Made by a program: the position numbers and the translations under genes
Part shown: positions 9,156 through 38,564 of the stretch, one piece after another
Position numbering within the stretch: position 1 is the first letter of the stretch
Layout of the letters: each line of letters opens with the position of its first letter
The notes under the pieces: generated by a model
The model's input: only the letters and a program-made list of their open reading frames with translations
Told to the model about the DNA's origin: nothing
The model's database searches: none
Assembly (NCBI GenBank): GCA_963748045.1
Contig: CAVVIC010000018.1
Location: forward strand, 37,021-101,020
Source: an uncultured Gammaproteobacteria bacterium
GTDB lineage: Bacteria; Pseudomonadota; Gammaproteobacteria; Steroidobacterales; Rariloculaceae
Reading direction: 5' to 3'
Length of the DNA stretch: 64,000 nt

Positions 9156-10145
9156 CGCGCGTTCCAACTCTCCCAACACCGCGCGGTCGAGCCAACTGCG
9201 CAGTCGATAGTTTTCGATGAACGCGCAGTGCCCGCCGTGCGGGAACACGTCGACAGACAGCGCACTCGTGACGGCGATATCGGCCAGATCTTCGATCGGA
9301 ATGACCGGATCGTCGGCCGCGGCGATGATGCGTGTCGGCACGGCCAGATTCGCCAAGACGTCCCCGGTGACCGCGTAGCCTTTCAGGTACGAGTCGAGAT
9401 CGGGGAAGCCTGCATAGCGCGTCGCAAAGAACTCGGTCGTCGCCGTAAGCGTCGGCAGCTTATGCAGATTGCCGAAATCGTAGAGCTCGGGAAAGCACGC
9501 GGCCTTCGCGAGCAGGCTTCGCCGCCAACGGCGAAGAAAGTACTTTCGATACACCCAGAGACCTTCCTCGAGCGCCCGCATCGTGCTGTGCGGCCGCAAC
9601 ACGGGACAAATCGCCACGACGCGCGCGAGGTCGATGCCCTCGGCCGGCGCTCGCGCCGCGACGCGTAGCGCGAAGTTGCCGCCGAGCGAGTGGCCCACGA
9701 GGAACGTGCGCGGCGCACGATGCGTGGCGACGATACGCTGCACGGCTCCGACGACTTCGGCGATACGGCACGAATGGAACAGCTCTCTATTCAACGCAAA
9801 CGTATTGCCGTGATCGCGGAAGTTCAGCCGGAAGATGTCGAAGCCCGCTTCGTACAGCCGGCCGCCGGTGGACAGGACGTAACTCGCCGCGGCGCTGCCC
9901 TCCCAGCCATGTAACAGAATCACGAGCCCGCGTGTGGTGCTCCGCTGCGGGCTGAAGTGGCCCAAAAGACGCACGCCGGCGCCGCAGTCGACGATCTCAT
10001 CCAAAGTCGCCGCCAGCATTGGGCTGGCCTGCCGGCCCAGCCATGGCTGACGAAACGGCCAGCCCGCCAGCAACGACTGCACATGGCGATGACGAAGCCC
10101 GACGGGGGGCTTGAATGCACTTACGACGTGCGGCGTACGCTGCAT
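9150..10145 (-). CDS. alpha/beta-fold hydrolase (YheT-like)
   Basis: Intact 331-aa ORF. Has the nucleophile elbow GHSLGGN, ...VILLHGWEGSAAASY..., and a C-terminal ...HGGHCAF... consistent with the YheT/ABHD1-3 type. Confidence 0.75.
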   Translation of the reverse strand: MQRTPHVVSAFKPPVGLRHRHVQSLLAGWPFRQPWLGRQASPMLAATLDEIVDCGAGVRLLGHFSPQRSTTRGLVILLHGWEGSAAASYVLSTGGRLYEAGFDIFRLNFRDHGNTFALNRELFHSCRIAEVVGAVQRIVATHRAPRTFLVGHSLGGNFALRVAARAPAEGIDLARVVAICPVLRPHSTMRALEEGLWVYRKYFLRRWRRSLLAKAACFPELYDFGNLHKLPTLTATTEFFATRYAGFPDLDSYLKGYAVTGDVLANLAVPTRIIAAADDPVIPIEDLADIAVTSALSVDVFPHGGHCAFIENYRLRSWLDRAVLGELERAL

Positions 10146-22249: not shown

Positions 22250-22925
22250 TCAAAGGGCCGCGGGCAGAGGCTCGATCAGCACAGCGTCGTCGTTGCGCGG
22301 ATCGTTGACCGCAAGCGATACCGGCCACGCTTCGACCTGCGGCGCACGCGCCGCGATCTCTGCCGCTTCCGCAGCGCTCGTGTGCGGATCGAGCCAACGC
22401 GCCTGGTCGGCGCGCGCCACGAGCACCGGCATGCGGTCGTGGATCGGCGCGAGCGTCGCGTTGGCATCGGTCGTCACGATCACGCAGGTTTCGAGCGTCC
22501 GGCCGTCGGGTGCGCGCCAGCGCTCCCACAGGCCTGCGAACGCGAGCAACGGCTCGCCGTGGCCGCGGATGAAGAACGGCCGCCGCCGGCCCTGCACCGC
22601 TTCGCCCCATTCGTAGAAGCCGCTCGCCGCGATCAGGCAACGGCGTCGCGTGAACGCTTCGCGAAACGCCGGCTTGTCGGGCAGGCTATCGAGACGCGCG
22701 TTGATGAGCCGTTGGCCGATCGAGGCGTCCTTCGCCCAGAACGGCACGAGCCCCCACTTCAGGAGATCGAGCCGCCGCACGCCATCGCGCTCGCGCACGA
22801 CGGCCACGGCCTGCCCCGGCGTGACGTTATAGTGCGGCGGCAGCGCCTCGGCCACGGCCTCCGTGAGGCCGAAGTGCTCGGCGAGTCTGCGCGGACGTGG
22901 CGAACAGCGCGAACCGGCCGCACAC
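22250..22925 (-). pseudogene. SOS response-associated peptidase (SRAP/YedK family), frame interrupted once near the 5' end
   Basis: GTG-TGC-GGC-CGG-TTC at 22925 encodes (M)CGRFALF, the catalytic N-terminal Cys2 motif. After about 22890 the rest (...LAEHFGLTEA...PHYNVTPGQ...LKWGLVPFWAKD...INARLDSL...GFYEW...) continues in the frame of ORF 22250-24673. Length is 676 = 3n+1. Confidence 0.8.
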
Positions 22926-22926
22926 C

Positions 22927-23679
22927 TTACGCTCGGACGCCGCGACCGTAGTTCAGCAGCAGCAGCACGGCCGCGAACAATACCGCGGCCGAACCCACCA
23001 TGATCGCGTACGCCAAGCCGATCGGTATGTCCGACGAGCCGAGCATGCCGTAACGGAACGCGTTGACCATGTACAGGATCGGATTCGCCAGCGCGACCTT
23101 CTGCCAGAACGGCGACAGCAGCTTGATCGAGAAGAACACGCCGCCGAGATACGTCAGCGGCGTCAGCACGAACGTCGGGATGATCGAGATGTCGTCGAAC
23201 GACTTCGCGAAGATCGCGTTGAACAGGCCCGCAAGCGAAAACACGATGGCCGTGAGCAGGATCGTCGTGAACGTGATCAGCGGATGCACGACGTGCAGGT
23301 CCGCGAAGAACATCGCGACCACCACGACGAGGGCCGCCACGAGCAGGCCGCGCACGACGCCGCCGACGACGTAGCCCACCACGATCGTCGTGTACGCGAG
23401 CGGCGCGACGAGCATCTCCTCGAGATGCAGCATCAGCTTGCTCGAGAAGAACGACGACACCACGTTCGCGAACGAGTTCGTGATGACGGACATCATGATC
23501 AGGCCGGGCGCGATGAACGTCATGTACGACACTCCGTCCATGGTGCCGATGCGCCCGCCCACGAGGCTGCCGAAGATGATGAAGTACAGCGTCATCGTGA
23601 TGGCCGGCGGCACGATCGTCTGGATCCAGATTCGCACCACGCGGCGCGATTCCTTGCGCACGATCGTATTCAACCCCAC
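22927..23679 (-). CDS. ABC-2 type transporter permease (YadH-like)
   Basis: 250 codons from the GTG at 23679. ...RIWIQTIVPPAITMTLYFIIFGSLVGGRIG... is collinear with E. coli YadH. Six TM segments. Confidence 0.85.
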   Translation of the reverse strand: MGLNTIVRKESRRVVRIWIQTIVPPAITMTLYFIIFGSLVGGRIGTMDGVSYMTFIAPGLIMMSVITNSFANVVSSFFSSKLMLHLEEMLVAPLAYTTIVVGYVVGGVVRGLLVAALVVVVAMFFADLHVVHPLITFTTILLTAIVFSLAGLFNAIFAKSFDDISIIPTFVLTPLTYLGGVFFSIKLLSPFWQKVALANPILYMVNAFRYGMLGSSDIPIGLAYAIMVGSAAVLFAAVLLLLNYGRGVRA

Positions 23680-23736
23680 GAGGTTGATGCGCCACAGGTT
23701 CGGCGCGGCGATGCGGCGAGCAATGCGTTGCGTCGT

Positions 23737-24673
23737 TCATGCGGAGCGGCGCTCCTCTTTGTCTTTGTCCTGGACGAGACGGATGAACAGCTCCTCGAGA
23801 CGATTCGTCTTCGTGCGCATGCTGGCTACGTGCAGCGACTGCGCCGAGAGCTGCGCGAACACGTCGTTCAACCCCTGCCCTTTCATGACTTCGACCTCGA
23901 TCTCGTGCTCGTTCCGCAGCCGCGTGGGGTACGCCGCGAGCGCCGGTGCGGCACTGACGGGCTCCTTCAGGCTCAGCACGAACGTCTCGACCTGCAGCTT
24001 GCCGATGACGTTCTTCATCGTGTCGTTCTCGATGATCCTGACCTTCGTCGATGATCGCGATGTTCCGGCACAGGCTCTCGGCTTCGTCGAGGTAGTGCGT
24101 CGTCAGGATGATCGTGACGCCGGCCGCGTTGATCTCGCGCATGAACTCCCACATCGAGCGGCGGATCTCGATGTCGACGCCGGCCGTTGGCTCGTCGAGG
24201 ATCAGGAGGCGCGGCTCGTGGACGAGCGCGCGCGCGATCATGAGCCGGCGCTTCATGCCGCCCGACAGCGTGCGCGCGATGCCGAGGCGCTTTTCCCAAA
24301 GGTGCAGCGCCTTCAGGTACTTCTCGGTGCGCTCGCGCGCCACGTTCGCGGGCACGCCGTAGTACCCCGCCTGGTTGATCAGCGTGAGGTCGTTGCGCTC
24401 GAACATGTTCAGGTTGATCTCCTGCGGCACCACGCCGATGGAGGCCTTCGCGGCCTCGCGCGCGGTGTCGAGATCGTGCCCAAACACCTGGACCGAGCCG
24501 CCCGTTTTGCGGATCAGCGACGTGATGATGCCGATCGTCGTGGTCTTGCCGGCGCCGTTCGGGCCGAGCAGCGCGAAGAAATCGCCCTCGCGTACCGTGA
24601 GGTCGATGCCTTTCAGCGCTTCCACGCCGTTGCCGTAGACCTTGCGCAGGCCCTTGATGACTAACGCGTCCAT
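23737..24673 (-). pseudogene. ABC transporter ATP-binding protein (YadG-like), frame interrupted once
   Basis: Has Walker A GPNGAGKTT, signature LSGGMKRR and Walker B LLILDEP. After ...NIAIIDEGQ an extra base near 24037 moves the C-terminal domain (IIENDTMKNVIGKLQVETF...RLVQDKDKEERRSA*) into ORF 23737-24018. Length is 937 = 3n+1. Confidence 0.88.
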
Positions 24674-26043: not shown

Positions 26044-26802
26044 ATGTGTCTCGTGGTCGTGGCGCACGCGGCGGCGGCGCGCTACAGGTTCGTGATCGCA
26101 GCCAACCGCGACGAGCTGCATGCGCGGCCCACGCGGCCGGCGGGCTGGTGGCCCGAGCCGCCGGGGCTCCTCGGCGGCCGCGACCTGCTGGCCGGCGGCA
26201 CCTGGCTCGGCGTGGATAAGCGCGGCCGTATCGCGGCCGTCACGAACGTGCGCGACGGCACGCCGCGCGAGGCGCCGCGCTCGCGCGGTGCGCTGGTCAC
26301 CGACTATCTCGGCGGCGACGAGCCGGCCGCGAACTTCGCGGCGCGATTGGCCGCGGCCGGCGCAGGGTTCGCCGCGTTCAATCTGCTGCTGCTCGACGGC
26401 GCCGAGCTGCGGTACACCAGCAACCGAGCGCCGCCGACGCGGCTCGCGCCGGGCGTGCACGCGCTCAGCAACGCGCCGCTCGGTGTCGACTGGCCGAAGA
26501 CCACCAGTGCGAAGGATGGCGTCACGCGCCTGCTCGCTTCGGCCGATCCGCTCGAGGCGTTGTTCGAGCTGCTCGCCACTCGCAGCACCGCGGATTCCGC
26601 AGAAGAGCGCTACCGCAGCGCGCACTTCGTGACCGGACCCGTGTACGGCACGCGCTGCTCGACGGTGATCCTGATCGACGATCGAGGCGTGCTGACGTTC
26701 GCCGAGCGTTCGTTCGATGCCGGCGGCTCGCGCACGGGCGAGGTTCGCGAGACGTTCGCGATCGAGCCGCAGCCGACCGCCTCAACCGACGCGCTGCGCT
26801 AG
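26044..26802 (+). CDS. NRDE-family protein (TANGO2-like)
   Basis: MCLVVVAH...VIAANRDELHARPT...GGTWLGV...RIAAVTNVR... contains the literal NRDE motif and the N-terminal Cys2 typical of the family. It starts 14 nt after the FlhC-like stop. Confidence 0.8.
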   Translation: MCLVVVAHAAAARYRFVIAANRDELHARPTRPAGWWPEPPGLLGGRDLLAGGTWLGVDKRGRIAAVTNVRDGTPREAPRSRGALVTDYLGGDEPAANFAARLAAAGAGFAAFNLLLLDGAELRYTSNRAPPTRLAPGVHALSNAPLGVDWPKTTSAKDGVTRLLASADPLEALFELLATRSTADSAEERYRSAHFVTGPVYGTRCSTVILIDDRGVLTFAERSFDAGGSRTGEVRETFAIEPQPTASTDALR

Positions 26803-27456
26803 CCACGCCGCGATCGCGACGATCTCCTCGGCGCACACGCTGTGCGGCATCGGGTAGACGTGCCAATCGACGGCGTAGCCCAAGCCCTCGAGCGTGCGCC
26901 GCGAGCCTTCTGCGAGCGCGAGCGGCAGCAGCGGATCTGCCGAGCCGTGCGCCATGAAGATCGGCACGCCCGCATTCGCGGCGCTGCGCTCGGCAGCCAA
27001 GGTGTCGCCGAGCGGCAAGTAGGTCGAGAGCGCGAGCACGCCGGCCAGCGACCGGGGCTCGCGCAACGCCGTGTGCAGCGCGATGGCCCCGCCTTGCGAG
27101 AAACCGGCCAGCACGATCTGCGAAGCCGTGAGACCGCGCTCGATCTCGCGATCGATGAGTCGCGTGACGGCCGCGGCGCTCGCGCGAATGCCGGCCGCGT
27201 CCTGCCGCACGTTCATGCCGAACCCCAAAATGTCGTACCAGCCCCGCATCTCCATGCCGCCGTTCACGGTGATCGGCCGCACGGGTGCGTGCGGGAACAC
27301 GAAGCGCGCCGGAAACGGCAAATCGAGCTCCGGCACGATCGGCTCGAAGTCGTGCCCGTCGGCACCGAGCCCGTGCAGCCAGATGATCGCGAGCTCCGGC
27401 AAGTCGCCGGTGGAAATTTCTACGGTCGGCAAGAGCGTGTCGGACGGGGTCGTCAT
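26782..27456 (-). CDS. carboxylesterase/phospholipase-family alpha/beta hydrolase
   Basis: 224 aa with ...IIWLHGLGADGHDF..., the nucleophile elbow GFSQGG, and ...FMAHGSADPLLP.... Confidence 0.8.
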   Translation of the reverse strand: MTTPSDTLLPTVEISTGDLPELAIIWLHGLGADGHDFEPIVPELDLPFPARFVFPHAPVRPITVNGGMEMRGWYDILGFGMNVRQDAAGIRASAAAVTRLIDREIERGLTASQIVLAGFSQGGAIALHTALREPRSLAGVLALSTYLPLGDTLAAERSAANAGVPIFMAHGSADPLLPLALAEGSRRTLEGLGYAVDWHVYPMPHSVCAEEIVAIAAWLAQRVG

Positions 27457-27532: not shown

Positions 27533-28000
27533 ATGCCTGCTTCACGCGAACAAACGGAGCGACGCCAAGCGATTGCCCGGCTCCTCGAGGAACACTCGAT
27601 CAACCGGCAGGCAAAACTCGTCGAGCTGCTTCGGGCCGAAGGGTATCCGGCCACGCAGTCGAGCGTGAGCAGGGATTTGCGGGATCTCGGAGCGATCAGA
27701 CAGAAGACCGGTTACAGCTTGCCGAAGGCTGCCGAGGTTAGCAACGGCGAGTCGCTGCAGGGCGTAGCGGAACTCGTGCTCGACATTCGGCCCGCGGGGC
27801 CGAACCTGCTCGTGATCATGACCGAGGTCGGCGCCGCACAGCGCGTCGCCGTGACGCTCGACCATATCGGCTGGCCGGAGATCGTCGCTACGCTGTCCGG
27901 CGACGACACGATCTTCGTGGCGACCGAAGGTGCAAACCAACAACGCCGGCTGCGAAGCCGGTTGCGACAACATCTGAATCTGAAGAAGGCATCCACATGA
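27533..28000 (+). CDS. argR: arginine repressor
   Basis: ATG at 27533. The N-terminal winged helix is RQAIARLLEEHSINRQAKLVELLRAEGYPATQSSVSRDLRDLG. The C-terminal oligomerisation domain is ...LVIMTEVGAAQRVAVTLD...IVATLSGDDTIFV.... Confidence 0.85.
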   Translation: MPASREQTERRQAIARLLEEHSINRQAKLVELLRAEGYPATQSSVSRDLRDLGAIRQKTGYSLPKAAEVSNGESLQGVAELVLDIRPAGPNLLVIMTEVGAAQRVAVTLDHIGWPEIVATLSGDDTIFVATEGANQQRRLRSRLRQHLNLKKAST

Positions 28001-29223
28001 CGGCTGCGGCTAAACCGATCGTTCTGGCGTTCTCCGGCGGGCTCGACACGTCGTTCTGCATTCCCTGGCTCAAGGAGACCTACGGCCGGCCGGTCGTGAC
28101 GGTGACGGTGAACTGCGGCGGCATCGACGCCGCGGCCGCGCGGCAGCTTCAAGAGCGCGCGAAGGCGCTCGGCGCCGTGGAGCACCACTTGATCGAGGCG
28201 CGGGGCGAGTTCTTCGACAAGGTCATCAAGTTCCTGATCATGGGCAACATCCGTCGCGGCAACATGTACCCGCTGTGCGTGGGCGCCGAGCGCGGCTTGC
28301 AGGCGAAGTACTTGGCTGAGCTCGCGAAGCAACTCGGCTCGGATACCGTGGCTCACGGCTGCACGGCGGCCGGCAACGACCAGGTGCGGTTCGAGATCGT
28401 GCTGAAGGCCGTGGCGCCCGAGCTCGTGATTCTAGCGCCCGTGCGCGATCACGCGTGGCAACGGCCGGCGCAGGTCAAGTTCCTCGAGGACCGCAAGATG
28501 TCCGTGCCGACGCGTGGGTCGGCCTACTCGACCAATCGCGGCCTCTGGGGCGTCACGATCGGCGGCAGCGAAACGCTCGACTCGAAGGGCAGCATTCCCG
28601 AGTCGGCGTGGGTGCTCTCGGCCGGTGCGCTCGACAAGCCGCAACCGTACTCCGAGATCGAAGTCGAGTTCGAGCGGGGCGTGCCCGTGGGGCTCGACGG
28701 CGCGCGGCTCGATGCCGTCGCGCTGATCGAGAAGCTCGAGACGGTCGCCGCGCGCTATGGCATCGGCCGCGGCATCCATTTGGGCGACACGATCATCGGC
28801 ACGAAGGGCCGCGTGGCGTTCGAAGCGCCCGCCGCCGAAGTCCTGATCAATGGGCATCGCGAGCTCGAGAAGCTCACGCTGACGCTGACGCAGTCGCAGG
28901 TCAAAGAGCCCGTGAGCCAGATCTACGGCCAGCTGATCCACGAAGGCAAACAGCTCGACCCGGCGTGCCGCGACATCGAAGCCCTGTTCGTGTCGTCGCA
29001 GTCGCGCGTCTCCGGCAAGGTCCGCGTGCAGCTGCGGCCCGGCAGCCTGTTCGTGCTGGGCGTGACCTCGCCGCACTCGCTGATGGCCGCGAGCCGCGGC
29101 AAGTACGGCGAAGCCGCGGGCGAGTGGACGGCGGCCGACGCACTCGGTTTCTCGAAGATCATGGCGTTGCCCGGGATGTTCCATACCCGGGCCGGAGGGG
29201 CAGTGACATGCGCTCGGTATTAG
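27997..29223 (+). CDS. argG: argininosuccinate synthase
   Basis: Intact 408 aa with the ATP-PPase motif AFSGGLDTS and ...HGCTAAGNDQVRFE.... The start overlaps the argR stop (ATGA). Confidence 0.92.
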   Translation: MTAAAKPIVLAFSGGLDTSFCIPWLKETYGRPVVTVTVNCGGIDAAAARQLQERAKALGAVEHHLIEARGEFFDKVIKFLIMGNIRRGNMYPLCVGAERGLQAKYLAELAKQLGSDTVAHGCTAAGNDQVRFEIVLKAVAPELVILAPVRDHAWQRPAQVKFLEDRKMSVPTRGSAYSTNRGLWGVTIGGSETLDSKGSIPESAWVLSAGALDKPQPYSEIEVEFERGVPVGLDGARLDAVALIEKLETVAARYGIGRGIHLGDTIIGTKGRVAFEAPAAEVLINGHRELEKLTLTLTQSQVKEPVSQIYGQLIHEGKQLDPACRDIEALFVSSQSRVSGKVRVQLRPGSLFVLGVTSPHSLMAASRGKYGEAAGEWTAADALGFSKIMALPGMFHTRAGGAVTCARY

Positions 29224-30282
29224 TCGACAAGATCGCGTCGGTCGCGCTGCAGGCCGACCTGGGCCAGGAGATCCGCGTCGCGGACGAGATCCCGTGCGAG
29301 GAAGGCGTGTTGATCGCGGTCGAGGTGCTGAACAACAAGTCGCGCTACAACACGCTCGAGCTCACGAGCGGCCGCATGGCTGAGGTCAAGAAGGGCGACG
29401 TCGTGGTCGGCGCACTGGGCCATCGCAAAGCGCTGTTCGGCTATTCGGGCCATCTCCCCACCGAGCTGAAGCCCGGCGACATCGTGCAACTCCTGAACTT
29501 GGGCGGCGTGGTCGGCATCTGCGACTCGATCAATCCCTCGCAACGGCGAACCGTTCGACTGCCGCGTGCTCGGCGTCGTGCTCGACTTCCCGTACTTGGG
29601 ACAGCGCGTCGGCGTGCCCGCGCGAGTATCGGCGCAGCCGCTGCAGACGGATGTCCCGCTCACGATTCAGGGCGTGCCCGTGGTCGCAATTGCCGGCACC
29701 TGCATGAACTCGGGCAAGACGGCCGCCGCCTGTGCGATCGTGAGCCGGTTCCGCCACAACGGCCTCGTCGTCGATGCGTTCAAGTCGACCGGCGTCGCGC
29801 TGCGCCGCGACATTCTCGCGATGGAAGACTCGGGCGCGCGGCACATCGCGATGTTCTCGGACTTCGGCATCGTCGCGACGACGTCGAAGAACGCGCCGGC
29901 GCTCACTCGCAGTCTGCTGAACGAGCTCGGCGAGCAGAAACCCGACGCGATCGTGTTCGAGCTCGGCGACGGCCTGCTCGGCGCGTACGGCGTCGAGGCC
30001 ATCCTGCGCGACAAGGAAATCTGTAACTCGATTACGGCCATGGTGCTGTGCGCGAACGATCCGGTCGGGGCCTGGGGCGGCGCGAAGCTGCTGCGCGAGG
30101 AGTTCGGCATCGAGCCCACCGTGATCTCGGGCCCGGCCACGGACAACCAGGTCGGCATCGACATCATCAGGGACCGTGCGAACGTCGCGGCGTTGAACGC
30201 CATGACGCACGCGGCCGAGCTCGGCGACTTGCTCCAGTCCGCGATCGGTCTTAAGCACCGGGCCGCGAAGGCGAGCGCATGA
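29208..30282 (+). pseudogene. uncharacterised two-domain protein X with a Walker-A-like P-loop, embedded in the arg operon, frame interrupted once
   Basis: The ATG at 29208 is preceded by GGAGGGG. The N-terminal part is MRSVLVDKIASVALQADLGQEIRVADEIPCEEGVLIAVEVLNN...GICDSINPS. After an extra base near 29545 it continues NGEPFDCRVLGVVLDFPYLGQ...VVAIAGTCMNSGKTAAACAIVSRF... to 30282. It overlaps argG by 16 nt and argC by 4 nt. Length is 1075 = 3n+1. Confidence 0.6.
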
Positions 30283-31343
30283 GCGCGCCGAAGCCCATTC
30301 CCACCATCGTGCTCGGTGGCTCCGGGTACGTGGCCGGCGAGTTCCTGCGCCTGCTGCACGCGCACCCGAAGCTCACCGTCGGCGGCGTCGTGTCGTCGAG
30401 TCAGGCCGGCGAGCCCGTGGCCAAGACGTTCAACCATCTCGCGCCCGCGTTTCCGACTGAGACGTTCGTGTCGCTCGACGCCGTGATCGGGCGCCTTGGC
30501 ACGGCACCGAAGTGGCTCGTCCTGTCGGCCGCGCCGCACGGCGCGTCGGCGGGACTCATCGACAAGCTGCTGACCGCCGGGGCCAGCGCTGGGGTCGAGA
30601 TCGTGGTCGTCGATGCGTCGGCCGACTTCAGGTTCGCGGACGCGGATGCGTACGCGGCCGTGTACGGGCACGAGCACCAGGCGCGGGCGCGTCTGCCCGA
30701 GTTCACCTGCGCGGTGCCGGAGCAACTCCCGACCATCGCCACGCCGCACGCGGCGCACCCGGGCTGCTTCGCGACCACGATGCTGCTGCCGATCGTGCCA
30801 CTGGCGGCGCTTGGCGTCGCCGACGAATTCTTCGTGAGCGCGGTGACCGGCAGCACGGGCGCCGGCCGCACGCCGCGCGACACCACGCATCACCCGCTGC
30901 GGCAGAGCAATCTGTTCGCGTACCAAGCGTTGAAACACCGGCACGATCCGGAGGTACGGTCGCTGATCAAAGCCGCGACCGGCCGCGACGTGGCACTGAA
31001 CTTCGTGCCGCACTCGGGCCCGTTCGCGCGTGGCATTCACGCGACGATCTTCGTGAAACCGAAGGAACGCATGAGCGCGAGCCAAGTCAACGACGCACTG
31101 CGCGAGTACTATCGCGGCAGCACGTTCGTGCGCGTCGACGCCGAGCCGCCGAAGATGAAGGACATCGTTGCCACGAACTACGCGGCCATGCATGCCGTCG
31201 CCAATGGCGACACGATCGTAGTGTTCTGCGTGACCGACAATCTGCTCAAAGGCGCTGCCGGCGGCAGTCTCCAGTGGGCGAACCGTTTGCTCGGTCTGCC
31301 GGAGACGATGGGTTTGACTGCACCAGCAGCGGGGTGGTTGTAA
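30279..31343 (+). CDS. argC: N-acetyl-gamma-glutamyl-phosphate reductase
   Basis: Intact 354 aa. Has the N-terminal Rossmann motif VLGGSGYVAGEFLRLL, the active-site region HPGCFATT, and a C-terminal ...DNLLKGAAGGSLQWANRL.... Confidence 0.9.
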   Translation: MSAPKPIPTIVLGGSGYVAGEFLRLLHAHPKLTVGGVVSSSQAGEPVAKTFNHLAPAFPTETFVSLDAVIGRLGTAPKWLVLSAAPHGASAGLIDKLLTAGASAGVEIVVVDASADFRFADADAYAAVYGHEHQARARLPEFTCAVPEQLPTIATPHAAHPGCFATTMLLPIVPLAALGVADEFFVSAVTGSTGAGRTPRDTTHHPLRQSNLFAYQALKHRHDPEVRSLIKAATGRDVALNFVPHSGPFARGIHATIFVKPKERMSASQVNDALREYYRGSTFVRVDAEPPKMKDIVATNYAAMHAVANGDTIVVFCVTDNLLKGAAGGSLQWANRLLGLPETMGLTAPAAGWL

Positions 31344-32520
31344 TGAGCGTAGCGACACACGAGATCGCCGCCGTCGGCGCGCATCTGAACGAGGTTTATC
31401 CCATGCTGCCGTTCACGCCGGTGCGCGGCGTCGGCGTGTACCTCGAGAACGCGGCCGGGCGCCGGATTCTCGATCTGTACGGCGGCCATGCAGTCGCGGC
31501 ACTCGGCTATGGCCACCGCGATCTTTCCGAGACGCTGGCGCGGCAGAGCCGCGACCTCGTGTTCCAGACGAATGCCCTGCCGCTGAAGATCCGCGACGAA
31601 GCGGCCGAGAAGCTCGCGGCCTTCGGCCCACCGGGCTTAGGACGCGTGTTTTTCGTCAACAGCGGCGCCGAGGCGAACGAGAACGCGCTGCGCCTCGCCT
31701 TCAAGGTCACGGGGCGCAGCAAGATCGTGGCGATGGAAGGCAGCTTCCACGGCCGCACGGCCGCGGCCGCGTGCCGTGACCTGGGGCGCCGCCAAGACCT
31801 GGTACGGCTTCCCGCGCACTCCGTTCGACGTGCAGTTCGTGCCGCGCAACGACGCCAACGCGCTCGCTGCGGCCGTCGACTCGAGCACGGCTGCCGTGAT
31901 CATCGAGCCGGTGCAAGGGCTCGCGGGCGCGTTCGACTTCGCGCCGGCGTTTCTGCACGCGGTGCGCGCGGCGTGCGACAAGGCCGGCGCGCTCTACATC
32001 ATGGACGAGGTGCAGACCGGCATGGGCCGCCTCGGCGCGCCGTTCGGCGCGCAGCTGTACAACGTGCGGCCCGATCTGCTGACGGTGGCCAAAGGCTTAG
32101 GCGGCGGTTTCCCGTGCGGCGCCGTGCTGATGCCGAATAGCATCGCAGCGGATTTGAAGCCCGGCGCACTCGGCACGACGTTCGGCGGCGGCCCCGTGGC
32201 CTGCGCCGCGATCAAGACCGTGATCGAAGTCATCGAGCGCGACAAACTGCTCGCCAACGTTCGCGAGGTCAGCGCCGCGATTCGCGCGACGTGCAAAGTC
32301 GGGCCAGTCGAGAGCATCCAGGGGCAGGGCTTACTGCTGGGACTGCGCACGCGGCCGAAGGCCGCCGCGGTTCGCGACGCACTGCTCGCGCGCGACATTT
32401 TGGCCGGCACCAGCGCGGACCCGCACGTGCTGCGCTTGTTGCCGCCGCTTGATTCTCTCGACCGAACACGTGGAACGCCTGTCTGCCGCCCTGAAGGAGC
32501 TGAACGATGCTTCGCTTTAA
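31343..32520 (+). pseudogene. argD: acetylornithine (acyl-ornithine) aminotransferase, two frame interruptions
   Basis: ...YGGHAVAALGYGHRD...FFVNSGAEANENALRLA...MEGSFHGRTAAAA runs to a shift near 31770. VTWGAAKTWYGFPRTPF...IMDEVQTGMGRLG...TFGGGPVACAA...LRLLPPL runs to a shift near 32448. The end is ILSTEHVERLSAALKELNDASL*. Length is 1178 = 3n+2. Confidence 0.88.
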
Positions 32521-33508
32521 CGACCTGGCCGATTTTTCGAATGAGGAGATCAAGGACCTGATCGCGCTCGCCGCGCGGCTCGACAAGAATCCCGAGCCGC
32601 GTGCGCTCGAGGGCAAGGTCTTGTCGCTGCTGTTCTTGAGTCCGTCGCTGCGGACACTATCGTCGTTCCAGGCGGCGATGATCAGGCTTGGCGGCGGCGC
32701 GTTCGTGATCTCGCCCGACATGTCGATCCACGGCCTCGAGTCGCGCTACGGGATCGTGATGGACGGCACTGCGGCCGAGCACGTGCGCGAGGCGATTCCG
32801 GTCATCGCGTCGTACGGCGACGCGATGGGTGTGCGCGCGTTCGCCGACCGGCGCGATCTCGCGCACGACATCGCGGACACGGACTTCAAGAACTACACGG
32901 GCCTCATCAACAAGCCGTGGATCAACATGGAGTCGGCCATCGACCACCCGTGCCAGAGCCTCGCGGACTGGAAGACGCTGGACGATCTCGGCGTTCCGGA
33001 ACACGGCAAGTTCGTGCTGTCGTGGGGCTACCATCCGAAAGCGCTGCCGCTCGCCGTGTCGGCCGCGACGATCCACATGGCGGCGAAGCGCGGCATGAAC
33101 GTCGTGCATCTGCGGCCGCCTGGCTTCGAGCTGCCGCCGGCGATCATGGACAAGGCGCACAAAGCCGCCGCGGCCTCGGGCGGCAGCGTCACGGAAACCA
33201 CCGATCGACGCGAGGCGATGGAAGGCGCGCACGTGATCTACACGAAGTCGTACTCGTCGACGAAGTACTACGGCGACAAGCTCGGCGACCAGGCGCTGCG
33301 CGAGCAGCTCGTGGGCACCTGGTGCGTCGACGAGCCGTGGTTCGCGAACGCGCGGCCCGACTGCCGGTTCATGCACTGCTTGCCGGTGCGGCGCGGCGTC
33401 GAGGTATCCGATCGGATTCTCGACGGCTCGCGCAGCGTCGTGATTCAGGAAGCGCGTAACCGCTTGTACGCGCAAATGGCCGTGCTGTACCGCATGATGA
33501 AAGGCTGA
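32507..33508 (+). CDS. argF: N-acyl-L-ornithine carbamoyltransferase (argF'-type: AOTCase/SOTCase clade, not classical OTCase)
   Basis: Intact 333 aa. It is collinear with my recollection of the Xanthomonas AOTCase and Bacteroides SOTCase: ...LLFLSPSLRTLSSF..., GIVMDGTAAEHVREAIPVIASYGDAMGVRAF, INMESAIDHPCQSLAD, HCLPVRRGVEVSD...IQEARNRLYAQMAVL. Confidence 0.8.
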   Translation: MLRFNDLADFSNEEIKDLIALAARLDKNPEPRALEGKVLSLLFLSPSLRTLSSFQAAMIRLGGGAFVISPDMSIHGLESRYGIVMDGTAAEHVREAIPVIASYGDAMGVRAFADRRDLAHDIADTDFKNYTGLINKPWINMESAIDHPCQSLADWKTLDDLGVPEHGKFVLSWGYHPKALPLAVSAATIHMAAKRGMNVVHLRPPGFELPPAIMDKAHKAAAASGGSVTETTDRREAMEGAHVIYTKSYSSTKYYGDKLGDQALREQLVGTWCVDEPWFANARPDCRFMHCLPVRRGVEVSDRILDGSRSVVIQEARNRLYAQMAVLYRMMKG

Positions 33509-33513
33509 AGACC

Positions 33514-34446
33514 ATGACCGCAAGACTCTCTACGAACGAACAACGGGCCATCGTGATCACGGCACTGCGCCACGCGTTGCCGTATTTGCGAGTGTTCAAG
33601 AACAAGGTGTTCGTGCTGAAGGCCGGCGGCGACGCGTTCGTCTCGAACGAGACGACGCGCGCGCTGATGGAGCAGGTCGGCATCCTGCACCAGGTCGGCA
33701 TCCGCGTCGTGCTCGTGCACGGCGGCGGGCCGCAGTCGACGGCGCTCGCGAAACGCCTGGGGCTCGCGACGCAGATGATCGAAGGCCGGCGCGTCACCGA
33801 TGCCCAAACGCTCGAAGTCTCGACGATGGTGCTGAACGGCGAGATCAACACGCGCATCGTCGCCATGTGCCGCGCGCTCGGCATTCCCGCGATCGGCTTG
33901 AGCGGTGTCGATGGCGGGCTCATCAAGGCCAGCAAGCGGCCACCCGTGCAGGTGAGCGGCACTACCGTCGACTACGGGTTCGTCGGCGACATCCTCGGCA
34001 TCGACTCGAGCATTCTGCTGAAGCTGCTCGACAACGACCTCGTGCCGATCGTGAGCCCGCTCTCGGCCGACGACGGCGGCACGGTGCTGAACATCAACGC
34101 CGACACGGTCGCAGCGATGATCGCCTGCGAGCTCAAAGCCGAGAAGTTCGTGATGGCCACGGGCGCGCCGGGCATCCTGGACTCGCTCGACGACCCGCGC
34201 TCGCTGATCTCGTACATCGACCGCGCGGGCCTGCGTCGCCTGCGCGACGAAGGCAAGATCTCGGGCGGCATGCTGCCGAAGGTCGCGGCCATCGAGCGAG
34301 CGCTGTCCGGCGGCGTGCCGCGCGTGCACGTGATCTCTTACCAGCAGCCCGACAGCCTGCTGCTCGAAGTCTTCACGAACGAGGGCACGGGCACGCTGGT
34401 CGTCAACGACACGAAGAACCTGCGGCCCGAGGAGCAGACGAGCTAA
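33514..34446 (+). CDS. argB: acetylglutamate kinase
   Basis: Intact 310 aa with ...VFVLKAGGDAF..., ...VVLVHGGGPQ... and ...NINADTVAA.... It has a kinase domain only, with no fused acetyltransferase domain. Confidence 0.9.
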   Translation: MTARLSTNEQRAIVITALRHALPYLRVFKNKVFVLKAGGDAFVSNETTRALMEQVGILHQVGIRVVLVHGGGPQSTALAKRLGLATQMIEGRRVTDAQTLEVSTMVLNGEINTRIVAMCRALGIPAIGLSGVDGGLIKASKRPPVQVSGTTVDYGFVGDILGIDSSILLKLLDNDLVPIVSPLSADDGGTVLNINADTVAAMIACELKAEKFVMATGAPGILDSLDDPRSLISYIDRAGLRRLRDEGKISGGMLPKVAAIERALSGGVPRVHVISYQQPDSLLLEVFTNEGTGTLVVNDTKNLRPEEQTS

Positions 34447-34450
34447 CGCC

Positions 34451-35648
34451 ATGGCGCGCCTCTGGGACAAAGGGCTGCCGCTCGACGAGCAGATCTTGCA
34501 GTTCACGGCCGGCGAGGACCACGTCCTCGACGAACGGCTCGTGGCCTACGACGCGCGCGCGTCGATCGCGCACGCGCGCATGCTCGCGAAGCAGGGCTTG
34601 CTCAGCAAAGCCGACTGCGACGCGATCTGTTTAGGGCTAGAGGCACTCGCCGCGGCGCACGCGGCGGGCGAGTGGAAGATCGAGCTCGCGGACGAGGACG
34701 CGCACAGCGCGCTCGAGCGGCGGCTCACGGAGCGCATCGGCGAGGCCGGCGGCCGCGTGCATCTCGGCCGCTCGCGCAACGACCAGGTGCTGGTCGCGCT
34801 GCGCCTGTACTTGCGGGACGCGATCGGCGAGCTCGCGGCCGGCGCCGACGCCGTGATCGCGCGCGCTCGAGCGCGTCGCCACGGAGCAGGGCACCATCGC
34901 CCTGCCCGGCTACACGCACATGCAGCCGGCCATGCCGAGCTCCGTCGCGCTCTGGGCGCAAGGGTTCGCCACGGAGATCGGCGACGACCGCGACGGCCTG
35001 AAGACCGTGTTGCGGCGCGTGCAGAAGAATCCGCTCGGTTCGGCCGCCGGCTACGGCGTGCCGAATCTGCCGCTCGATCGCGAGGCGACGCGCGCCGCGC
35101 TCGGCTTCGACAGCGTGCACGATCCGGTCACGGCCGTGCAGCTGTCGCGCGGCAAGGCGGAAGCCGCGCTGCTGTTCGAGATCGCGCTCACGCTCGGCGA
35201 TCTCGGCCGCCTCGCATCGGACCTGCTGCTGTTCTACACGAGCGAGTTCGCGTACGTCACGTTGCCGGCCGAGATGACGACCGGCTCGTCGATCATGCCG
35301 CAGAAACGCAATCCCGACGTGTTCGAGCTCGTGCGCGGCGCGCAGGCCACCGTCGTGGGTGCGCTGCACGAGACGCTCGCGCTGACGGCCAAGCTGACCT
35401 CGGGCTACCACCGCGACCTGCAACGGCTGAAGGCGCCGTTGTTCCGGAGCATCGATCTCGCGACCGCCGTGCTCGCGATCATGGCGCATGCGCTGCCGAA
35501 CGTGCGGTTCCGCCCTGAGAACATCACACTTCAGCCCGAGCTCTTCGCCGCGGAACAGGCCAACGCGCTGGTCGTGAAGGAAGGCATTCCGTTTCGCGAA
35601 GCCTACCAACGGATCGCAGCGCAGCTCGCGCGCGGCAAGAACAAATGA
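34451..35648 (+). pseudogene. argH: argininosuccinate lyase, frame interrupted once
   Basis: The N-terminal third (...HLGRSRNDQVLVALRLYLRD...) runs to about 34858 in a gcgcgcgc run. It continues in the +1 frame as ALERVATEQGTIALPGYTHMQPAMPSS...GSSIMPQKRNPDVFE (lyase signature) to 35648. Length is 1198 = 3n+1. Confidence 0.9.
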
Positions 35649-35848
35649 ACGAACGGCGTCGTCATATCGCGCGCAACCTGCTGGTCGGTGCCCTGCTTGC
35701 GGGCGGGATCGTGGCCTGCGGCCAGCGCGGCCCGCTCGCGCTGCCGGAACAGGTGCGCCCGATCCAGCGCATCGAGCTGCCGCAGCCCCAACCCGAGGCG
35801 CAGCCACCGGAAAAGCAGGACGACGAGCAAAAAAAGAATGAGCGCTAA
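35645..35848 (+). CDS. lptM: small lipoprotein LptM/YifL-like
   Basis: 67 aa. A signal sequence plus lipobox is followed by the motif ...VACGQRGPLALP..., which matches E. coli YifL ...TGCGLKGPLYFP.... The tail is Pro/Glu/Gln-rich. The start overlaps the argH stop (ATGA). Confidence 0.7.
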   Translation: MNERRRHIARNLLVGALLAGGIVACGQRGPLALPEQVRPIQRIELPQPQPEAQPPEKQDDEQKKNER

Positions 35849-38564
35849 GCCGCTCGTTCTCGTCGACGGCTCCTCGTACCTGTACCGCGCGTTCCACGCG
35901 ATACCACCGCTGTCGACCGCCACGGGCGAGCCGACCAACGCCGTGCTCGGCGTCGTGAACATGCTGTACAAGCTGCTCGACGAGGTGAAGCCCGAGCGTA
36001 TGGCTGTGGTGTTCGACGCGCCGGGCAAGACGTTCCGCGACGACCTGTACGCCGAGTACAAAGCGCATCGGCCCGCGATGCCGGACGAGCTGCGCCCACA
36101 AGTCGCGCCGCTGCTCGAAACCATCGAGGCCATGGGCATCCCGCTGCTGCGCATCGAGGGCGTCGAGGCCGACGACGTGATCGGCACGCTCGCGCGCGAG
36201 GCGTCGGCCACTGGCGAACAAACGGTGATCTCCACCGGCGACAAGGATCTCGCGCAGCTCGTCGACGAGCGCGTGACGCTCGTGAACACGATGGACAACA
36301 CCACGCTCGACCGCGCGGGTGTGCAACAGAAATTCGGCGTGACGCCCGAACAGATCATCGACTACCTGGCGCTCGTCGGCGACACGTCGGACAACATCCC
36401 GGGCGTGCCGGGCGTCGGGCCGAAGACGGCCGTCAAGTGGCTCCAGCAGTACGGCGATCTCGACACACTGAAAGCGCGCGCGAGCGAAGTGCCCGGCAAG
36501 ATCGGCGAACGGCTGCGCGAATCGCTCGGGGTGCTCGATCTGTCGAGACAGCTCGCGACGATCCGTTGCGACCTCACGCTGCCGCTGCGAACCGCCGACC
36601 TCGCGCTGCGCACGCCCGACAAAGACCGGCTCGCCACACTCTTCGAGCGGCTCGAATTCAGCCGACTGCTGCGCCGCGTGCGCGGCGACGCGCCGACGCA
36701 GACCGCCGCGGGCGCTGCTACCACCGCCGCGGCGTCGGCACCCGCGCCAACACCGACGGTCGGCCGCTACGAAACCGTCGTAACCGAAGCCGCACTCGAA
36801 CGCTGGTGTGAGCGCCTGGCGAAAGCGCCGCTCGTTGCGCTCGACACCGAAACCACGAGCCTGGCCTACATGGAAGCCGAGCTCGTCGGCATCTCGCTCG
36901 CGATCACTGCGGGCGAGGCCGCCTACATCCCGCTCTCCCACCGCTACCCCGGCGCGCCGGACCAGCTGAACCGCGAGCGCGTGCTCGAGCGGCTCAAACC
37001 GTGGCTCGAGAGCGCGGCACCGAAGGTCGGCCATCATTTGAAGTACGACGCGCACATCTTCGAGAACCACGGCGTGAAGCTCGGCGGCATCGAGCACGAC
37101 ACGATGCTCGAGTCGTACGTGCTGAACTCGACGGCGACGCGCCACGACATGGATTCCGTGGCCACGTTGTACCTCGGCGTCACGACGATCAAGTACGAGG
37201 AGGTCGTCGGCAAGGGCGCGAAGCAGATCACGTTCGACCAGGTCGATCTCGACACGGCCACGCGCTACGCGGCCGAGGACGCCGACGTCACGCTGCGCCT
37301 GCACGAGAAGCTGTGGCCGCAGCTCCAGGCGGAGCCGGGACTCAAAAGCATTTACACCGACATCGAGCGGCCGTTGATCCGCGTGCTCGAGCGCATGGAG
37401 TACACGGGCGTGCGCGTCGACGCGCAACTGCTGCGCCAGCAGAGCCAGGAGCTCGCGACGAAGATGGCGGTGACCGAGCAAGCCGCCTACGCCGCGGCCG
37501 CCGGACCGTTCAATCTGAGTTCGCCGAAGCAACTCCAGGAAGTCCTGTACGAACGCTTGCAGCTGCCCGTGCTCGGCAAAACGCCGACGGGGCAGCCCTC
37601 CACGGCCGAGGACGTGCTCGAGCAGCTCGCCGAGAGCTACGACCTGCCCCGACTCGTGCTCGAGTACCGCGGGCTGTCGAAGCTGAAGTCCACGTACACC
37701 GACAAGCTGCCACTCGAGATCGATCCGCGCACCGGACGGATCCATACGTCCTACCACCAGGCCGTCGCCGCGACGGGCCGGCTGTCGTCGTCGGATCCGA
37801 ATCTGCAGAACATCCCGATTCGCACGCCCGAAGGGCGGCGCATCCGCCAGGCGTTCGTCGCACCGCCGGGTTGCAAGCTCTTGGCCGCCGACTACTCGCA
37901 AATCGAGCTGCGGATCATGGCGCACCTCTCGGGCGACGAAGGGTTGCTCGCCGCGTTCGCCGCCGGAGAGGACATCCACCGCGCCACCGCCGCGGAAGTG
38001 TTCGGCATGGAGCTCGACGCCGTGACGGGCGAGCAGCGCCGCTCAGCGAAGGCCATCAACTTCGGGTTGATCTACGGCATGTCGGCCTTTGGGCTCGCGC
38101 GCCAACTCGGAATCCAACGCGGCGAGGCGCAGACCTACGTGGACCGCTACTTCGAGCGCTACCCCGGCGTGAAGCGCTACATGGAGGAGACGCGCGCGGC
38201 CGCGCATCGCGAGGGCTTCGTCAGCACCGTATTCGGCCGGCGGTTGTATCTCCCGGAGATCAACGCGAAGAATCCCCAGCGCCGCCAGTACGCGGAGCGC
38301 AGCGCCATCAACGCGCCGATGCAGGGTACGGCGGCCGACATCATCAAGCGCGCGATGCTCGAAGTCGCCGCCTGGCTCGAGCAGCACCGCCCGGAGACCA
38401 AGCTCATCATGCAGGTCCACGACGAGCTCGTGATCGAGGTGCCCGAGAGCTACGCCGACGAGGTCGGGGCTGCCGTGGCGCGGATCATGGAAGGGGCCGC
38501 GAGCCTGCGCGTGCCGCTGCGGGTCGATCGCGGCCTCGGCGCCAATTGGGACGAAGCGCACTGA
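35838..38564 (+). CDS. polA: DNA polymerase I
   Basis: The ATG at 35838 (MSAKPLVLVDGSSYLYRAFHA..., 5'-3' exonuclease domain) begins an intact 908-aa frame. The 3'-5' exonuclease domain (...LDTETTSL...) and polymerase motifs (...LLAADYSQIELRIMAHLS..., ...RRSAKAINFGLIYGMS..., ...QVHDELV...) are present. It overlaps lptM by 11 nt. Confidence 0.95.
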   Translation: MSAKPLVLVDGSSYLYRAFHAIPPLSTATGEPTNAVLGVVNMLYKLLDEVKPERMAVVFDAPGKTFRDDLYAEYKAHRPAMPDELRPQVAPLLETIEAMGIPLLRIEGVEADDVIGTLAREASATGEQTVISTGDKDLAQLVDERVTLVNTMDNTTLDRAGVQQKFGVTPEQIIDYLALVGDTSDNIPGVPGVGPKTAVKWLQQYGDLDTLKARASEVPGKIGERLRESLGVLDLSRQLATIRCDLTLPLRTADLALRTPDKDRLATLFERLEFSRLLRRVRGDAPTQTAAGAATTAAASAPAPTPTVGRYETVVTEAALERWCERLAKAPLVALDTETTSLAYMEAELVGISLAITAGEAAYIPLSHRYPGAPDQLNRERVLERLKPWLESAAPKVGHHLKYDAHIFENHGVKLGGIEHDTMLESYVLNSTATRHDMDSVATLYLGVTTIKYEEVVGKGAKQITFDQVDLDTATRYAAEDADVTLRLHEKLWPQLQAEPGLKSIYTDIERPLIRVLERMEYTGVRVDAQLLRQQSQELATKMAVTEQAAYAAAAGPFNLSSPKQLQEVLYERLQLPVLGKTPTGQPSTAEDVLEQLAESYDLPRLVLEYRGLSKLKSTYTDKLPLEIDPRTGRIHTSYHQAVAATGRLSSSDPNLQNIPIRTPEGRRIRQAFVAPPGCKLLAADYSQIELRIMAHLSGDEGLLAAFAAGEDIHRATAAEVFGMELDAVTGEQRRSAKAINFGLIYGMSAFGLARQLGIQRGEAQTYVDRYFERYPGVKRYMEETRAAAHREGFVSTVFGRRLYLPEINAKNPQRRQYAERSAINAPMQGTAADIIKRAMLEVAAWLEQHRPETKLIMQVHDELVIEVPESYADEVGAAVARIMEGAASLRVPLRVDRGLGANWDEAH

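Follow-up and report, generated by a model that had tools for sequence, protein, structure and literature searches.

Introduction

The closest described relative of the gene treated here comes from Steroidobacter denitrificans, a bacterium that grows in minimal medium and has no recognisable N-acyl-glutamate synthase, and was discussed by Price et al. in Appendix 2 of the preprint 'Novel enzymes for amino acid biosynthesis in diverse bacteria and archaea: GapMind 2026' (bioRxiv 10.1101/2024.10.14.618325). The arginine cluster of this organism holds a hypothetical protein, ACG33_RS14135 (UniProt A0A127FCT3), which that work puts forward, as a prediction only, as an N-succinylglutamate synthase. 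According to the same source, homologues of the protein never share a genome with homologues of ArgA, 90% of the neighbouring ArgF' proteins (N-acyl-ornithine carbamoyltransferases) carry one of the residues A, P, S and V at position 92, Foldseek ties the protein weakly to DgcN (PDB 7XRJ, e = 1.4e-7, with an RMSD of 5.6 A), and the expected ArgE is likewise missing from S. denitrificans. Here we describe gene X, a member of the same predicted family found within the arginine operon of an uncultured gammaproteobacterium of the Rariloculaceae (GenBank assembly GCA_963748045.1, contig CAVVIC010000018.1, forward-strand positions 37,021 to 101,020; this whole stretch of 64,000 nucleotides is referred to as the window, and coordinates are counted from its first letter).

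The product of X is 64% identical to the S. denitrificans protein ACG33_14140 (P0434) over 354 of 357 residues (E = 3e-174), the latter having been found by a search seeded with the Steroidobacter sp. copy and being named by NCBI 'hypothetical protein ACG33_14140 [Steroidobacter denitrificans]'. The two loci share the gene order argR-argG-X-argC-argD-argF'-argB-argH, followed by short intervening genes and polA, and they share the ArgF' signature discussed below; nothing of substance separates the two proteins, except that the window copy is frameshifted as read. The initial annotation of the window, which proposed that this unassigned P-loop protein might be a non-orthologous glutamate N-acyltransferase, was thus sound but not new, and the window adds a further member to a predicted family. 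From its genomic setting we consider it likely that X makes N-succinyl-L-glutamate, feeding ArgB.

Genomic context

The operon lies on the plus strand, spans 27.5-35.7 kb of the window and reads argR-argG-X-argC-argD-argF'-argB-argH by NCBIfam profiles, which bears out the content first read from the sequence (ArgG, ArgC, ArgD, an acyl-ornithine carbamoyltransferase, ArgB and ArgH) and adds ArgR to it. Together these genes cover all steps of arginine synthesis but the acylation of glutamate and the deacylation of acyl-citrulline. The initial annotation had also seen neither ArgA nor a deacylase in the operon and no acetyltransferase fused to ArgB, and both points stand: ArgB is a protein of 310 aa with no GNAT domain, and in tblastn searches of the 64-kb window and of 80 related 21-kb loci the GNAT part of Escherichia coli ArgA (residues after ~320), ArgE and DapE were unmatched, ArgA aligning with ArgB through its kinase part only. 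A weak test with an ArgJ motif gave no match in the 64-kb window. A 167-aa RimJ-like GNAT was considered as a general synthase and rejected: it is encoded 2-4 kb downstream of the cluster in nine loci of one Steroidobacteraceae subgroup (L024 15494-15997, L021, L025, L027, L028, L039, L042, L046 and L075), but neither the window nor most loci carry it.

The 80 best genome loci, retrieved with a search seeded by a 12-sequence alignment and encoding proteins 62-96% identical to X, belong to Steroidobacteraceae, Woeseiaceae and unclassified Gammaproteobacteria. The full order from argR to argH is present in 56 of the 80, most others have the same order ended by contig edges, and argC follows X directly in every locus with enough downstream sequence (76/76). 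Smaller operons narrow this linkage further. Five Steroidobacteraceae genomes carry X-argC-argB only, directly downstream of two large tamA/tamB-like genes (tamA and tamB also stand upstream of the arginine cluster of S. denitrificans), a sixth genome has argR-X-argC-argB behind unrelated genes, and in a distant metagenome-assembled genome (MAG), deposited as Deltaproteobacteria, the operon consists of X-argC-argD-argB alone. Since these split operons keep X-argC-(argD)-argB, X stays with the enzymes that handle N-acyl-glutamate, and not with argF', argG and argH. For contexts more distant from the window, the sample consists of four informative single look-ups plus a fifth homologue that has no arginine linkage.

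The association with ArgB can go as far as a single polypeptide. Protein P0237 is a natural X-ArgB fusion, with a Pfam AA_kinase match of 115 bits and argB as its best NCBIfam match, and it is found on contigs from four Joint Genome Institute (JGI) metagenome samples (L083-L086), beside a divergent arginase-family gene. On L083 (9860-11881) the called start, TTG at 10001, is too late, and the open reading frame (ORF) from the ATG at 9860 includes a complete X part. No second cluster of this kind was found. P0179 (687 aa), which looks like an X-ArgC fusion, was discarded as an assembly artefact, ArgR-ArgG and ArgF'-ArgB also being called as fused on that contig.

The second gap in the operon raises the question of whether X could instead serve the deacylation step, either as an N-acyl-citrulline deacylase in the role of ArgE or as an ArgJ-like transacylase that returns the acyl group from acyl-citrulline or acyl-ornithine to glutamate. 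The window and the 80 closest loci contain no deacylase, and S. denitrificans also lacks the expected ArgE according to the preprint. ArgB of the window bears a long N-terminal extension (33514-33600). Such an extension presumably marks the arginine-inhibited hexameric kinases known from acyl-recycling pathways, and would to that extent favour the transacylase; if it has this meaning here, feedback control would sit on ArgB and not on X. We nevertheless regard both activities as very improbable. In one 6-Mb genome (L089) X stands first in an operon X-argC-argD-argB-M20 peptidase-argR-argG-argH, and a contig (L087) has an M20 fragment after argB; because X coexists there with an M20 deacylase, it is not itself a deacylase of the ArgE type. 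The same direction is indicated by the fusion to ArgB and by operons without argF', argG and argH in which X is kept beside argC, argD and argB, and no P-loop protein is known to be an amidohydrolase. The filling of the glutamate N-acylation gap, as first suggested for X, remains the best-supported reading, given the argC linkage, the early-half operons, the X-ArgB fusion, the M20 coexistence and the succinyl-type ArgF'.

The last of these concerns the acyl group. Ala90 of the window ArgF' aligns with E92 of the Xanthomonas campestris enzyme (3l02, 3m5c, 3l05; DGDT-E/A/S-EH against DGTA-A-EH), in a register that is fixed because the PDB holds a series of E92 mutants; the best-scoring PDB entry for the window protein is in fact the X. 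campestris E92A mutant. Besides the window, 64 of 65 related loci encode Ala at this position; the remaining one, from Blastocatellia, encodes Ser. Substitutions of this type switch the specificity of ArgF' to succinylornithine (Shi et al. 2007, as cited in bioRxiv 10.1101/2024.10.14.618325). Because the position is Ala or Ser, succinylated intermediates are indicated, an argument that reproduces that of the preprint, and judging from these ArgF' sequences succinyl is a more probable acyl group than acetyl.

Sequence family and conserved residues

Homologues of X number more than 7,900 in a large protein collection and form 1,433 clusters at 50% identity (E <= 1e-3). Nearly all of those listed are 350-365 aa long, they come mainly from gammaproteobacterial MAGs, and where the source supplies a name it is always 'hypothetical protein'; more remote members bear source names from Acidobacteriota, Myxococcota, Planctomycetota and Alphaproteobacteria. 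With the repaired X sequence no Pfam or NCBIfam model reaches its threshold. Weak matches are to Pfam EF-G_D2 (residues 38-108, E = 0.003) and, over the P-loop only, to MobB and CobB, and there is no match in Pfam or NCBIfam to GNAT models, to bioD (TIGR00347) or to Pfam AAA_26.

Across the family the most frequent best Pfam match is DUF1611_C (PF07755), at 16-24.6 bits against a cut-off of 25. These matches cover 36-60 residues around the P-loop, the best of them (24.6 bits) only 36, with CbiA and MobB scoring close behind; the S. denitrificans orthologue reaches 17.3 bits. DUF1611_N is not matched by the window protein or by the family members tested against Pfam. By Pfam criteria X therefore lies outside DUF1611 and constitutes a family of its own, whose P-loop domain is remotely related to DUF1611_C and to dethiobiotin synthetase.

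Conservation was assessed in an alignment of 57 diverse homologues that are 28-91% identical to the reference. All have P84, G169, K170 and K192, and S11, G33, E51, R73, T171, D201, D218, D246, E251 (in ELGDG), Y260 and D284 are conserved in at least 90% of sequences, T171, D201 and E251 each reaching 98%. The motif GTCMNSGKT followed by FKSTGVA, noted in the first reading of the sequence, is present as described.

Structure and the chemistry it suggests

A very confident AlphaFold2 model built with the 57-sequence alignment (predicted local distance difference test score, pLDDT, 95.9; predicted template modelling score, pTM, 0.92) consists of a beta-rich N-terminal domain (residues 1 to ~130) and an alpha/beta P-loop domain (~150-345). 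Foldseek matches in the PDB concern the C-terminal domain only, with template modelling (TM) scores of at most 0.40 when normalised to the query. There are 176 matches at E <= 1e-3, and the best 50 of the 176 are all of the SIMIBI class. The P-loop domain is placed in this class because the matches are to dethiobiotin synthetases, which score best (1dae, E = 1.3e-6; target-normalised TM 0.51-0.61), and then to signal recognition particle (SRP) GTPases, HypB and FleN. Two profile searches of PDB sequences likewise rank dethiobiotin synthetase first (E = 4e-4 and 7e-4), and the alignment to the Mycobacterium tuberculosis enzyme (3fgn) spans the P-loop and sets K192 on the Lys of the CKP motif. 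Single-sequence searches of PDB sequences returned no DUF1611 entry. The N-terminal domain, modelled alone, has a pLDDT of 92.8 and is proposed from the models to be a substrate-binding domain.

These matches bring in a second way of making the same product. X could be an ATP-dependent ligase resembling dethiobiotin synthetase, with the same place in the pathway, which would form an acyl phosphate of succinate or another carboxylate for attack by the amine of glutamate, the products being N-succinylglutamate, ADP and phosphate, with no coenzyme A (CoA) thioester involved. The structural and profile rankings just given favour it, the profile alignments running over the P-loop and, with the Mycobacterium enzymes, also over the next Lys. 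So does the pattern of conservation, since the invariant G169, K170 and K192 and the nearly invariant T171, D201 and E251 are also found in paralogues outside arginine clusters, one of which has NCBIfam bioD as its best match (26 bits, cut-off 83). We take K170, T171, K192, D201 and E251 to correspond to K15, T16, K37, D54 and E115 of the E. coli dethiobiotin synthetase, which act on ATP, Mg and phosphoryl transfer. On the other side, all matches to dethiobiotin synthetase are far below the family thresholds, the diphosphate of CoA can also sit on the conserved P-loop residues, and with succinyl-CoA freely available the cost in ATP would be needless. DgcN, moreover, the only characterised remote relative that acts on glutamate, is reported to be an acetyl-CoA-dependent N-acetyltransferase (as cited in bioRxiv 10.1101/2024.10.14.618325). 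We therefore hold the ligase to be unlikely, if worth keeping in view; the corresponding proposal that X is a CoA-independent N-succinylglutamate synthetase, combining a P-loop ligase with a beta domain that has no solved relative and forming a new class of enzyme for the first step of arginine synthesis, is doubtful to the same degree.

The SIMIBI class is also rich in accessory proteins, and X might be a regulatory or accessory nucleoside triphosphatase (NTPase), such as a metallochaperone, an assembly factor or a nucleotide-dependent switch acting on ArgB or ArgC. HypB, FleN and the SRP GTPases among the structural matches, MobB among the weak profile matches and the constant adjacency of X to argC are in keeping with such a role. 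It would, however, leave the first step of the pathway without a candidate, and the mutual exclusion of the family and ArgA across genomes reported in the preprint indicates replacement of ArgA by the X family. The N-terminal domain, strongly conserved and with invariant polar residues, resembles a substrate site, and the 57-sequence alignment contains no conserved metal-binding Cys/His motif. An accessory NTPase thus seems improbable, more so than the ligase.

Proposed function and mechanism

On balance, we favour by a narrow preference the view that X is an N-acyl-L-glutamate synthase, neither ArgA nor ArgJ, which uses an acyl-CoA and has N-succinyl-L-glutamate as its most likely product. 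The C-terminal P-loop domain, with GTCMNSGKT, K192, D201, D218, E251 and D284, would bind the acyl donor by its nucleotide-diphosphate part; by analogy with the DUF1611 enzyme DgcN, this donor is expected to be succinyl-CoA. S11, E51, R73 and P84 of the N-terminal domain, together with Y260 and T311-D312-N313 of the C-terminal domain, may position L-glutamate, whose alpha-amino group would attack the thioester. The N-succinylglutamate formed would then pass through ArgB, ArgC, ArgD and the succinylornithine-type ArgF', and a desuccinylase encoded elsewhere would release the citrulline that ArgG and ArgH use; DapE, or some other hydrolase whose gene lies elsewhere, may plausibly be this last enzyme. 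Synthesis of X itself would be translationally coupled, the argG stop lying 1 nt before the X ATG and the X stop overlapping the argC ATG.

Several observations weigh against this proposal. The deacylase is missing from the cluster as well, so context alone cannot place X at the first step in this genome, and for the family as a whole the function is a prediction. One Planctomycetota homologue adjoins a NUDIX gene outside any arginine cluster, and it retains all the residues specific to arginine-linked members. The link to DgcN is weak in each of our comparisons. The initial annotation had pointed to DUF1611 from the size, domain layout and P-loop motif of X, and this resemblance holds in so far as family members do match DUF1611_C around the P-loop, but always below threshold, the window protein itself having no match at E <= 1; the DgcN structure 7XRJ is absent from the best 50 of the 176 Foldseek matches, and neither PDB profile search returned a DUF1611 entry at E <= 10. 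The N-terminal domain, to which part of the glutamate site is assigned, had no match in the PDB (best E = 0.49, TM <= 0.27). Finally, dethiobiotin synthetases, which rank first by fold and by profile, are ATP-dependent, and as modelled the conserved NTPase residues would be no less suited to ATP chemistry than to CoA binding.

Features of the locus and the state of the window copy

The coordinates of the operon and of the parts of X are collected in Table 1.

Table 1. Features of the arginine operon and of gene X in the window.
Feature	Coordinates	Strand	Evidence and remarks
argR, arginine repressor, 155 aa	27533..28000	+	NCBIfam TIGR01529, E = 1.2e-28; 3' end overlaps argG start (ATGA)
argG, argininosuccinate synthase	27997..29207	+	NCBIfam TIGR00032, 299 bits; stop TGA 29205-29207 after removal of the extra G near 29197
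gene X, 357 aa, predicted non-GNAT N-acyl (probably N-succinyl)-L-glutamate synthase	29208..30282	+	ATG 29208, TGA 30282; frame broken by extra A at 29542/29543
X, N-terminal beta-rich domain, residues 1 to ~130	29208..29598	+	AlphaFold models; conserved S11, E51, R73, P84
X, C-terminal P-loop alpha/beta domain, SIMIBI class, dethiobiotin synthetase-like	29656..30282	+	Foldseek 1dae, E = 1.3e-6; PDB profile searches
X, Walker A, G163-T-C-M-N-S-G-K170-T171	29695..29721	+	G169 and K170 invariant, T171 98% (57 diverse homologues)
X, K192 codon, motif FKSTG	29782..29784	+	invariant; aligns with Lys of the dethiobiotin synthetase CKP motif (3fgn)
X, E251-L-G-D-G, Walker-B-like acidic strand end	29959..29973	+	E251 98% conserved, including paralogues outside arginine clusters
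argC	30279..31343	+	TIGR01850, 266 bits; start overlaps X stop by 4 nt
argD, N-acyl-ornithine aminotransferase	31343..32520	+	NCBIfam; two 1-nt insertions, near 31772 and 32449
argF', N-acyl-ornithine carbamoyltransferase	32507..33508	+	NF003384, 304 bits; Ala90 codon 32774-32776 at the X. campestris E92 position
argB, N-acyl-glutamate kinase, 310 aa, kinase domain only	33514..34446	+	TIGR00761, 210 bits
argH, argininosuccinate lyase	34451..35648	+	NCBIfam; one 1-nt insertion near 34862

As read, the frame of X is broken. Where the window has tcg-caAc-ggc-gaa, intact homologues encode ...INPSHGEPFDC... or ...DSINPSHGEPFDC..., which places one extra A at 29542/29543, close to the position near 29545 given in the initial annotation; with this base dropped, the protein has the length of about 357 aa first proposed and matches the intact protein P0001 at 98% identity (E = 4.5e-224). 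The 4-nt overlap of X with argC was also read correctly (ATGA, 30279-30282). The 16-nt overlap with argG, in contrast, is spurious and results from a second inserted base: compared with L001, L002 and L003, three related genomes, the window has an extra G at ~29197, without which argG ends in ...TRAGGQ* instead of running on to 29223, and its stop falls just before the X ATG. The same base lies within the GGAGGGG quoted as the ribosome-binding site of X; the relatives have GGAGGG.

A frameshift of this kind could mean that X is a dead gene in this organism, inactivated as a pseudogene, which we hold to be highly improbable. Alignment of the window with L003 (88% nucleotide identity), L001 and L002 reveals 1-nt insertions every 1-3 kb between 21800 and 39100 (e.g. 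22886, 24041, 24793, 25082, 29197, 29542, 31772, 32449 and 34862), and these fall twice in argD and once each in argH, the end of argG and X, with several more in the DNA upstream of the operon; each of the broken genes is otherwise well conserved, and both halves of the split X remain 98% identical to the intact protein. Because the insertions recur, and because four broken arginine genes in one organism are implausible, an assembly error is indicated rather than a pseudogene, and from these alignments X is most likely intact in the living organism and is treated as such here. Long chimeric ORFs in the region, such as 22250-24673 on the minus strand, which starts as an ATP-binding cassette (ABC) ATPase, may be by-products of the insertions.

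Around the operon, a protein of the Abhydrolase_2 family (phospholipase/carboxylesterase) is encoded divergently from argR at 26782-27456 on the minus strand. Of the 80 related genomes, 46 have a homologue no more than 10 kb upstream of X, which in about 30 cases is directly divergent from argR, and the distant clusters have none; the gene could be a case of plain synteny or a candidate for the missing deacylase. Upstream of the arg operon stands a gene for a TANGO2-family protein (26044-26802, plus strand), syntenic in 36 related loci. Between argH and polA the window has an ORF of 67 aa with a lipoprotein-like N-terminus (35645-35848, plus strand), and at the same spot S. denitrificans has a weak LptM-family gene plus a 4HBT thioesterase.

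Relatives outside arginine clusters

A tblastn search of plasmids revealed two-domain relatives of X with 27-34% identity over ~80% of the length, annotated as 'DUF1611 domain-containing protein', 'dethiobiotin synthase' or 'hypothetical protein'. The possibility that the plasmid proteins labelled as DUF1611 are true members of that family was rejected, these X-like paralogues being below the Pfam threshold. Two of them are found on plasmids of Priestia megaterium (L097 3730-12418) and Bacillus paranthracis (L099 1-7957), in clusters with a phosphoenolpyruvate (PEP)-mutase-family gene, a split thiamine-diphosphate enzyme, ATP-grasp ligases and a TauD dioxygenase, which by gene content look like phosphonate natural-product clusters. 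A carbamoyltransferase gene is common to the two clusters, in B. paranthracis standing directly before the X-like gene on its upstream side, and an M20 peptidase is encoded in that of Priestia as well. By analogy with the arginine pathway, the pairing of carbamoyltransferase and M20 peptidase suggests an acylate-modify-deacylate logic applied to another amino acid; were the ATP-ligase reading to hold, the paralogues in phosphonate-type or peptide-type clusters would similarly 'protect the amine' of other amino acids. A different arrangement, in which the X-like gene is followed by an ABC exporter, occurs on plasmids of Paracoccus and Sulfitobacter (L095 6033-9540; L096 6160-9684; L100 5063-8468), preceded by an alpha/beta hydrolase gene in the two Paracoccus plasmids and by one for an unassigned protein in Sulfitobacter. 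These proteins are annotated as DUF1611 or dethiobiotin synthase and are below the Pfam thresholds for both.

R73, the P-loop, K192, D201, D218 and E251 are kept in all six proteins from outside arginine clusters that were compared, and five of these also have D284. Specific to arginine-linked X proteins are S11, E51, P84, Y260 and T311-D312-N313. This distribution, seen at the level of aligned residues, fits a shared catalytic core ringed by substrate-specific residues.

The labels carried by such proteins may also bear on surveys of DUF1611. X is present in all Woeseiaceae arginine operons and is sometimes labelled DUF1611, and a metagenomic survey finds dgcN to be common in Woeseiales (PMC12363236); some of the Woeseiales dgcN counts in that survey might be X and not true DgcN.

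Significance and comparison with known systems

Among the abundant bacteria of soils and sediments, Steroidobacterales, Woeseiaceae, many Acidobacteriota and Myxococcota-like bacteria by standard annotation seem to be without the first enzyme of arginine synthesis, a gap for which the X family is the only candidate. If the assignment is true, metabolic reconstructions of thousands of genomes now called arginine auxotrophs would be corrected, and a non-GNAT P-loop solution would be added to a textbook reaction. What is added here to the published prediction is modest and consists of the fusion, the early-half operons and the structural analysis, and the interest remains in the choice between transfer from succinyl-CoA and ATP-driven ligation; the X-ArgB fusion and the paralogues in phosphonate-type clusters provide new handles on the chemistry, on the role of the N-terminal domain and on the identity of the desuccinylase.

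DgcN reportedly acts as a D-glutamate N-acetyltransferase and thus acylates the amino group of glutamate (Yu et al. 2023, ISME J, as cited in the preprint). This DUF1611 protein (PDB 7XRJ) is, like X, ~350 aa long and has a P-loop alpha/beta domain in its C-terminal half. X differs in being sub-threshold for DUF1611_C, with 36-60 residues matched in the family, and in having no DUF1611_N or NCBIfam match, and its substrate would be L- and not D-glutamate, its acyl group probably succinyl and not acetyl, and its context biosynthetic rather than catabolic. With the group of BioD, CobB, CobQ and MobB, X shares the GT...GKT P-loop, a Lys after strand 2 and an acidic strand end (E-x-G-x-G). The likeness is limited to 12-14% identity and to TM scores of 0.51-0.61 over the C-terminal domain only, and X has in addition an N-terminal domain of 130 aa, no biotin or cobalamin gene context, and scores far below the cut-offs.

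In its proposed place in the pathway X is equivalent to ArgA (a kinase-like domain plus GNAT), to ArgJ, to the bifunctional synthase-kinase of Xanthomonadales (PMC1865377) and to the short GNAT synthases. The X-ArgB fusion parallels the pairing of kinase and acyltransferase in ArgA and the bifunctional enzymes, with the order reversed and X at the N-terminus. The fold of X is, however, unrelated to that of these classical synthases, and it contains neither a GNAT nor an ArgJ domain. Bacteroides arg clusters, for their part, carry a GNAT gene where X would be. The N-succinyl route of Bacteroidetes (PDB 2fg6/2g7m) has in common with the operon of the window an acyl-ornithine transcarbamylase with a small specificity residue and an acyl group that is kept until citrulline, while the window ArgF' itself scores higher against the Xanthomonas enzyme (199 bits) than against that of Bacteroides (145 bits).

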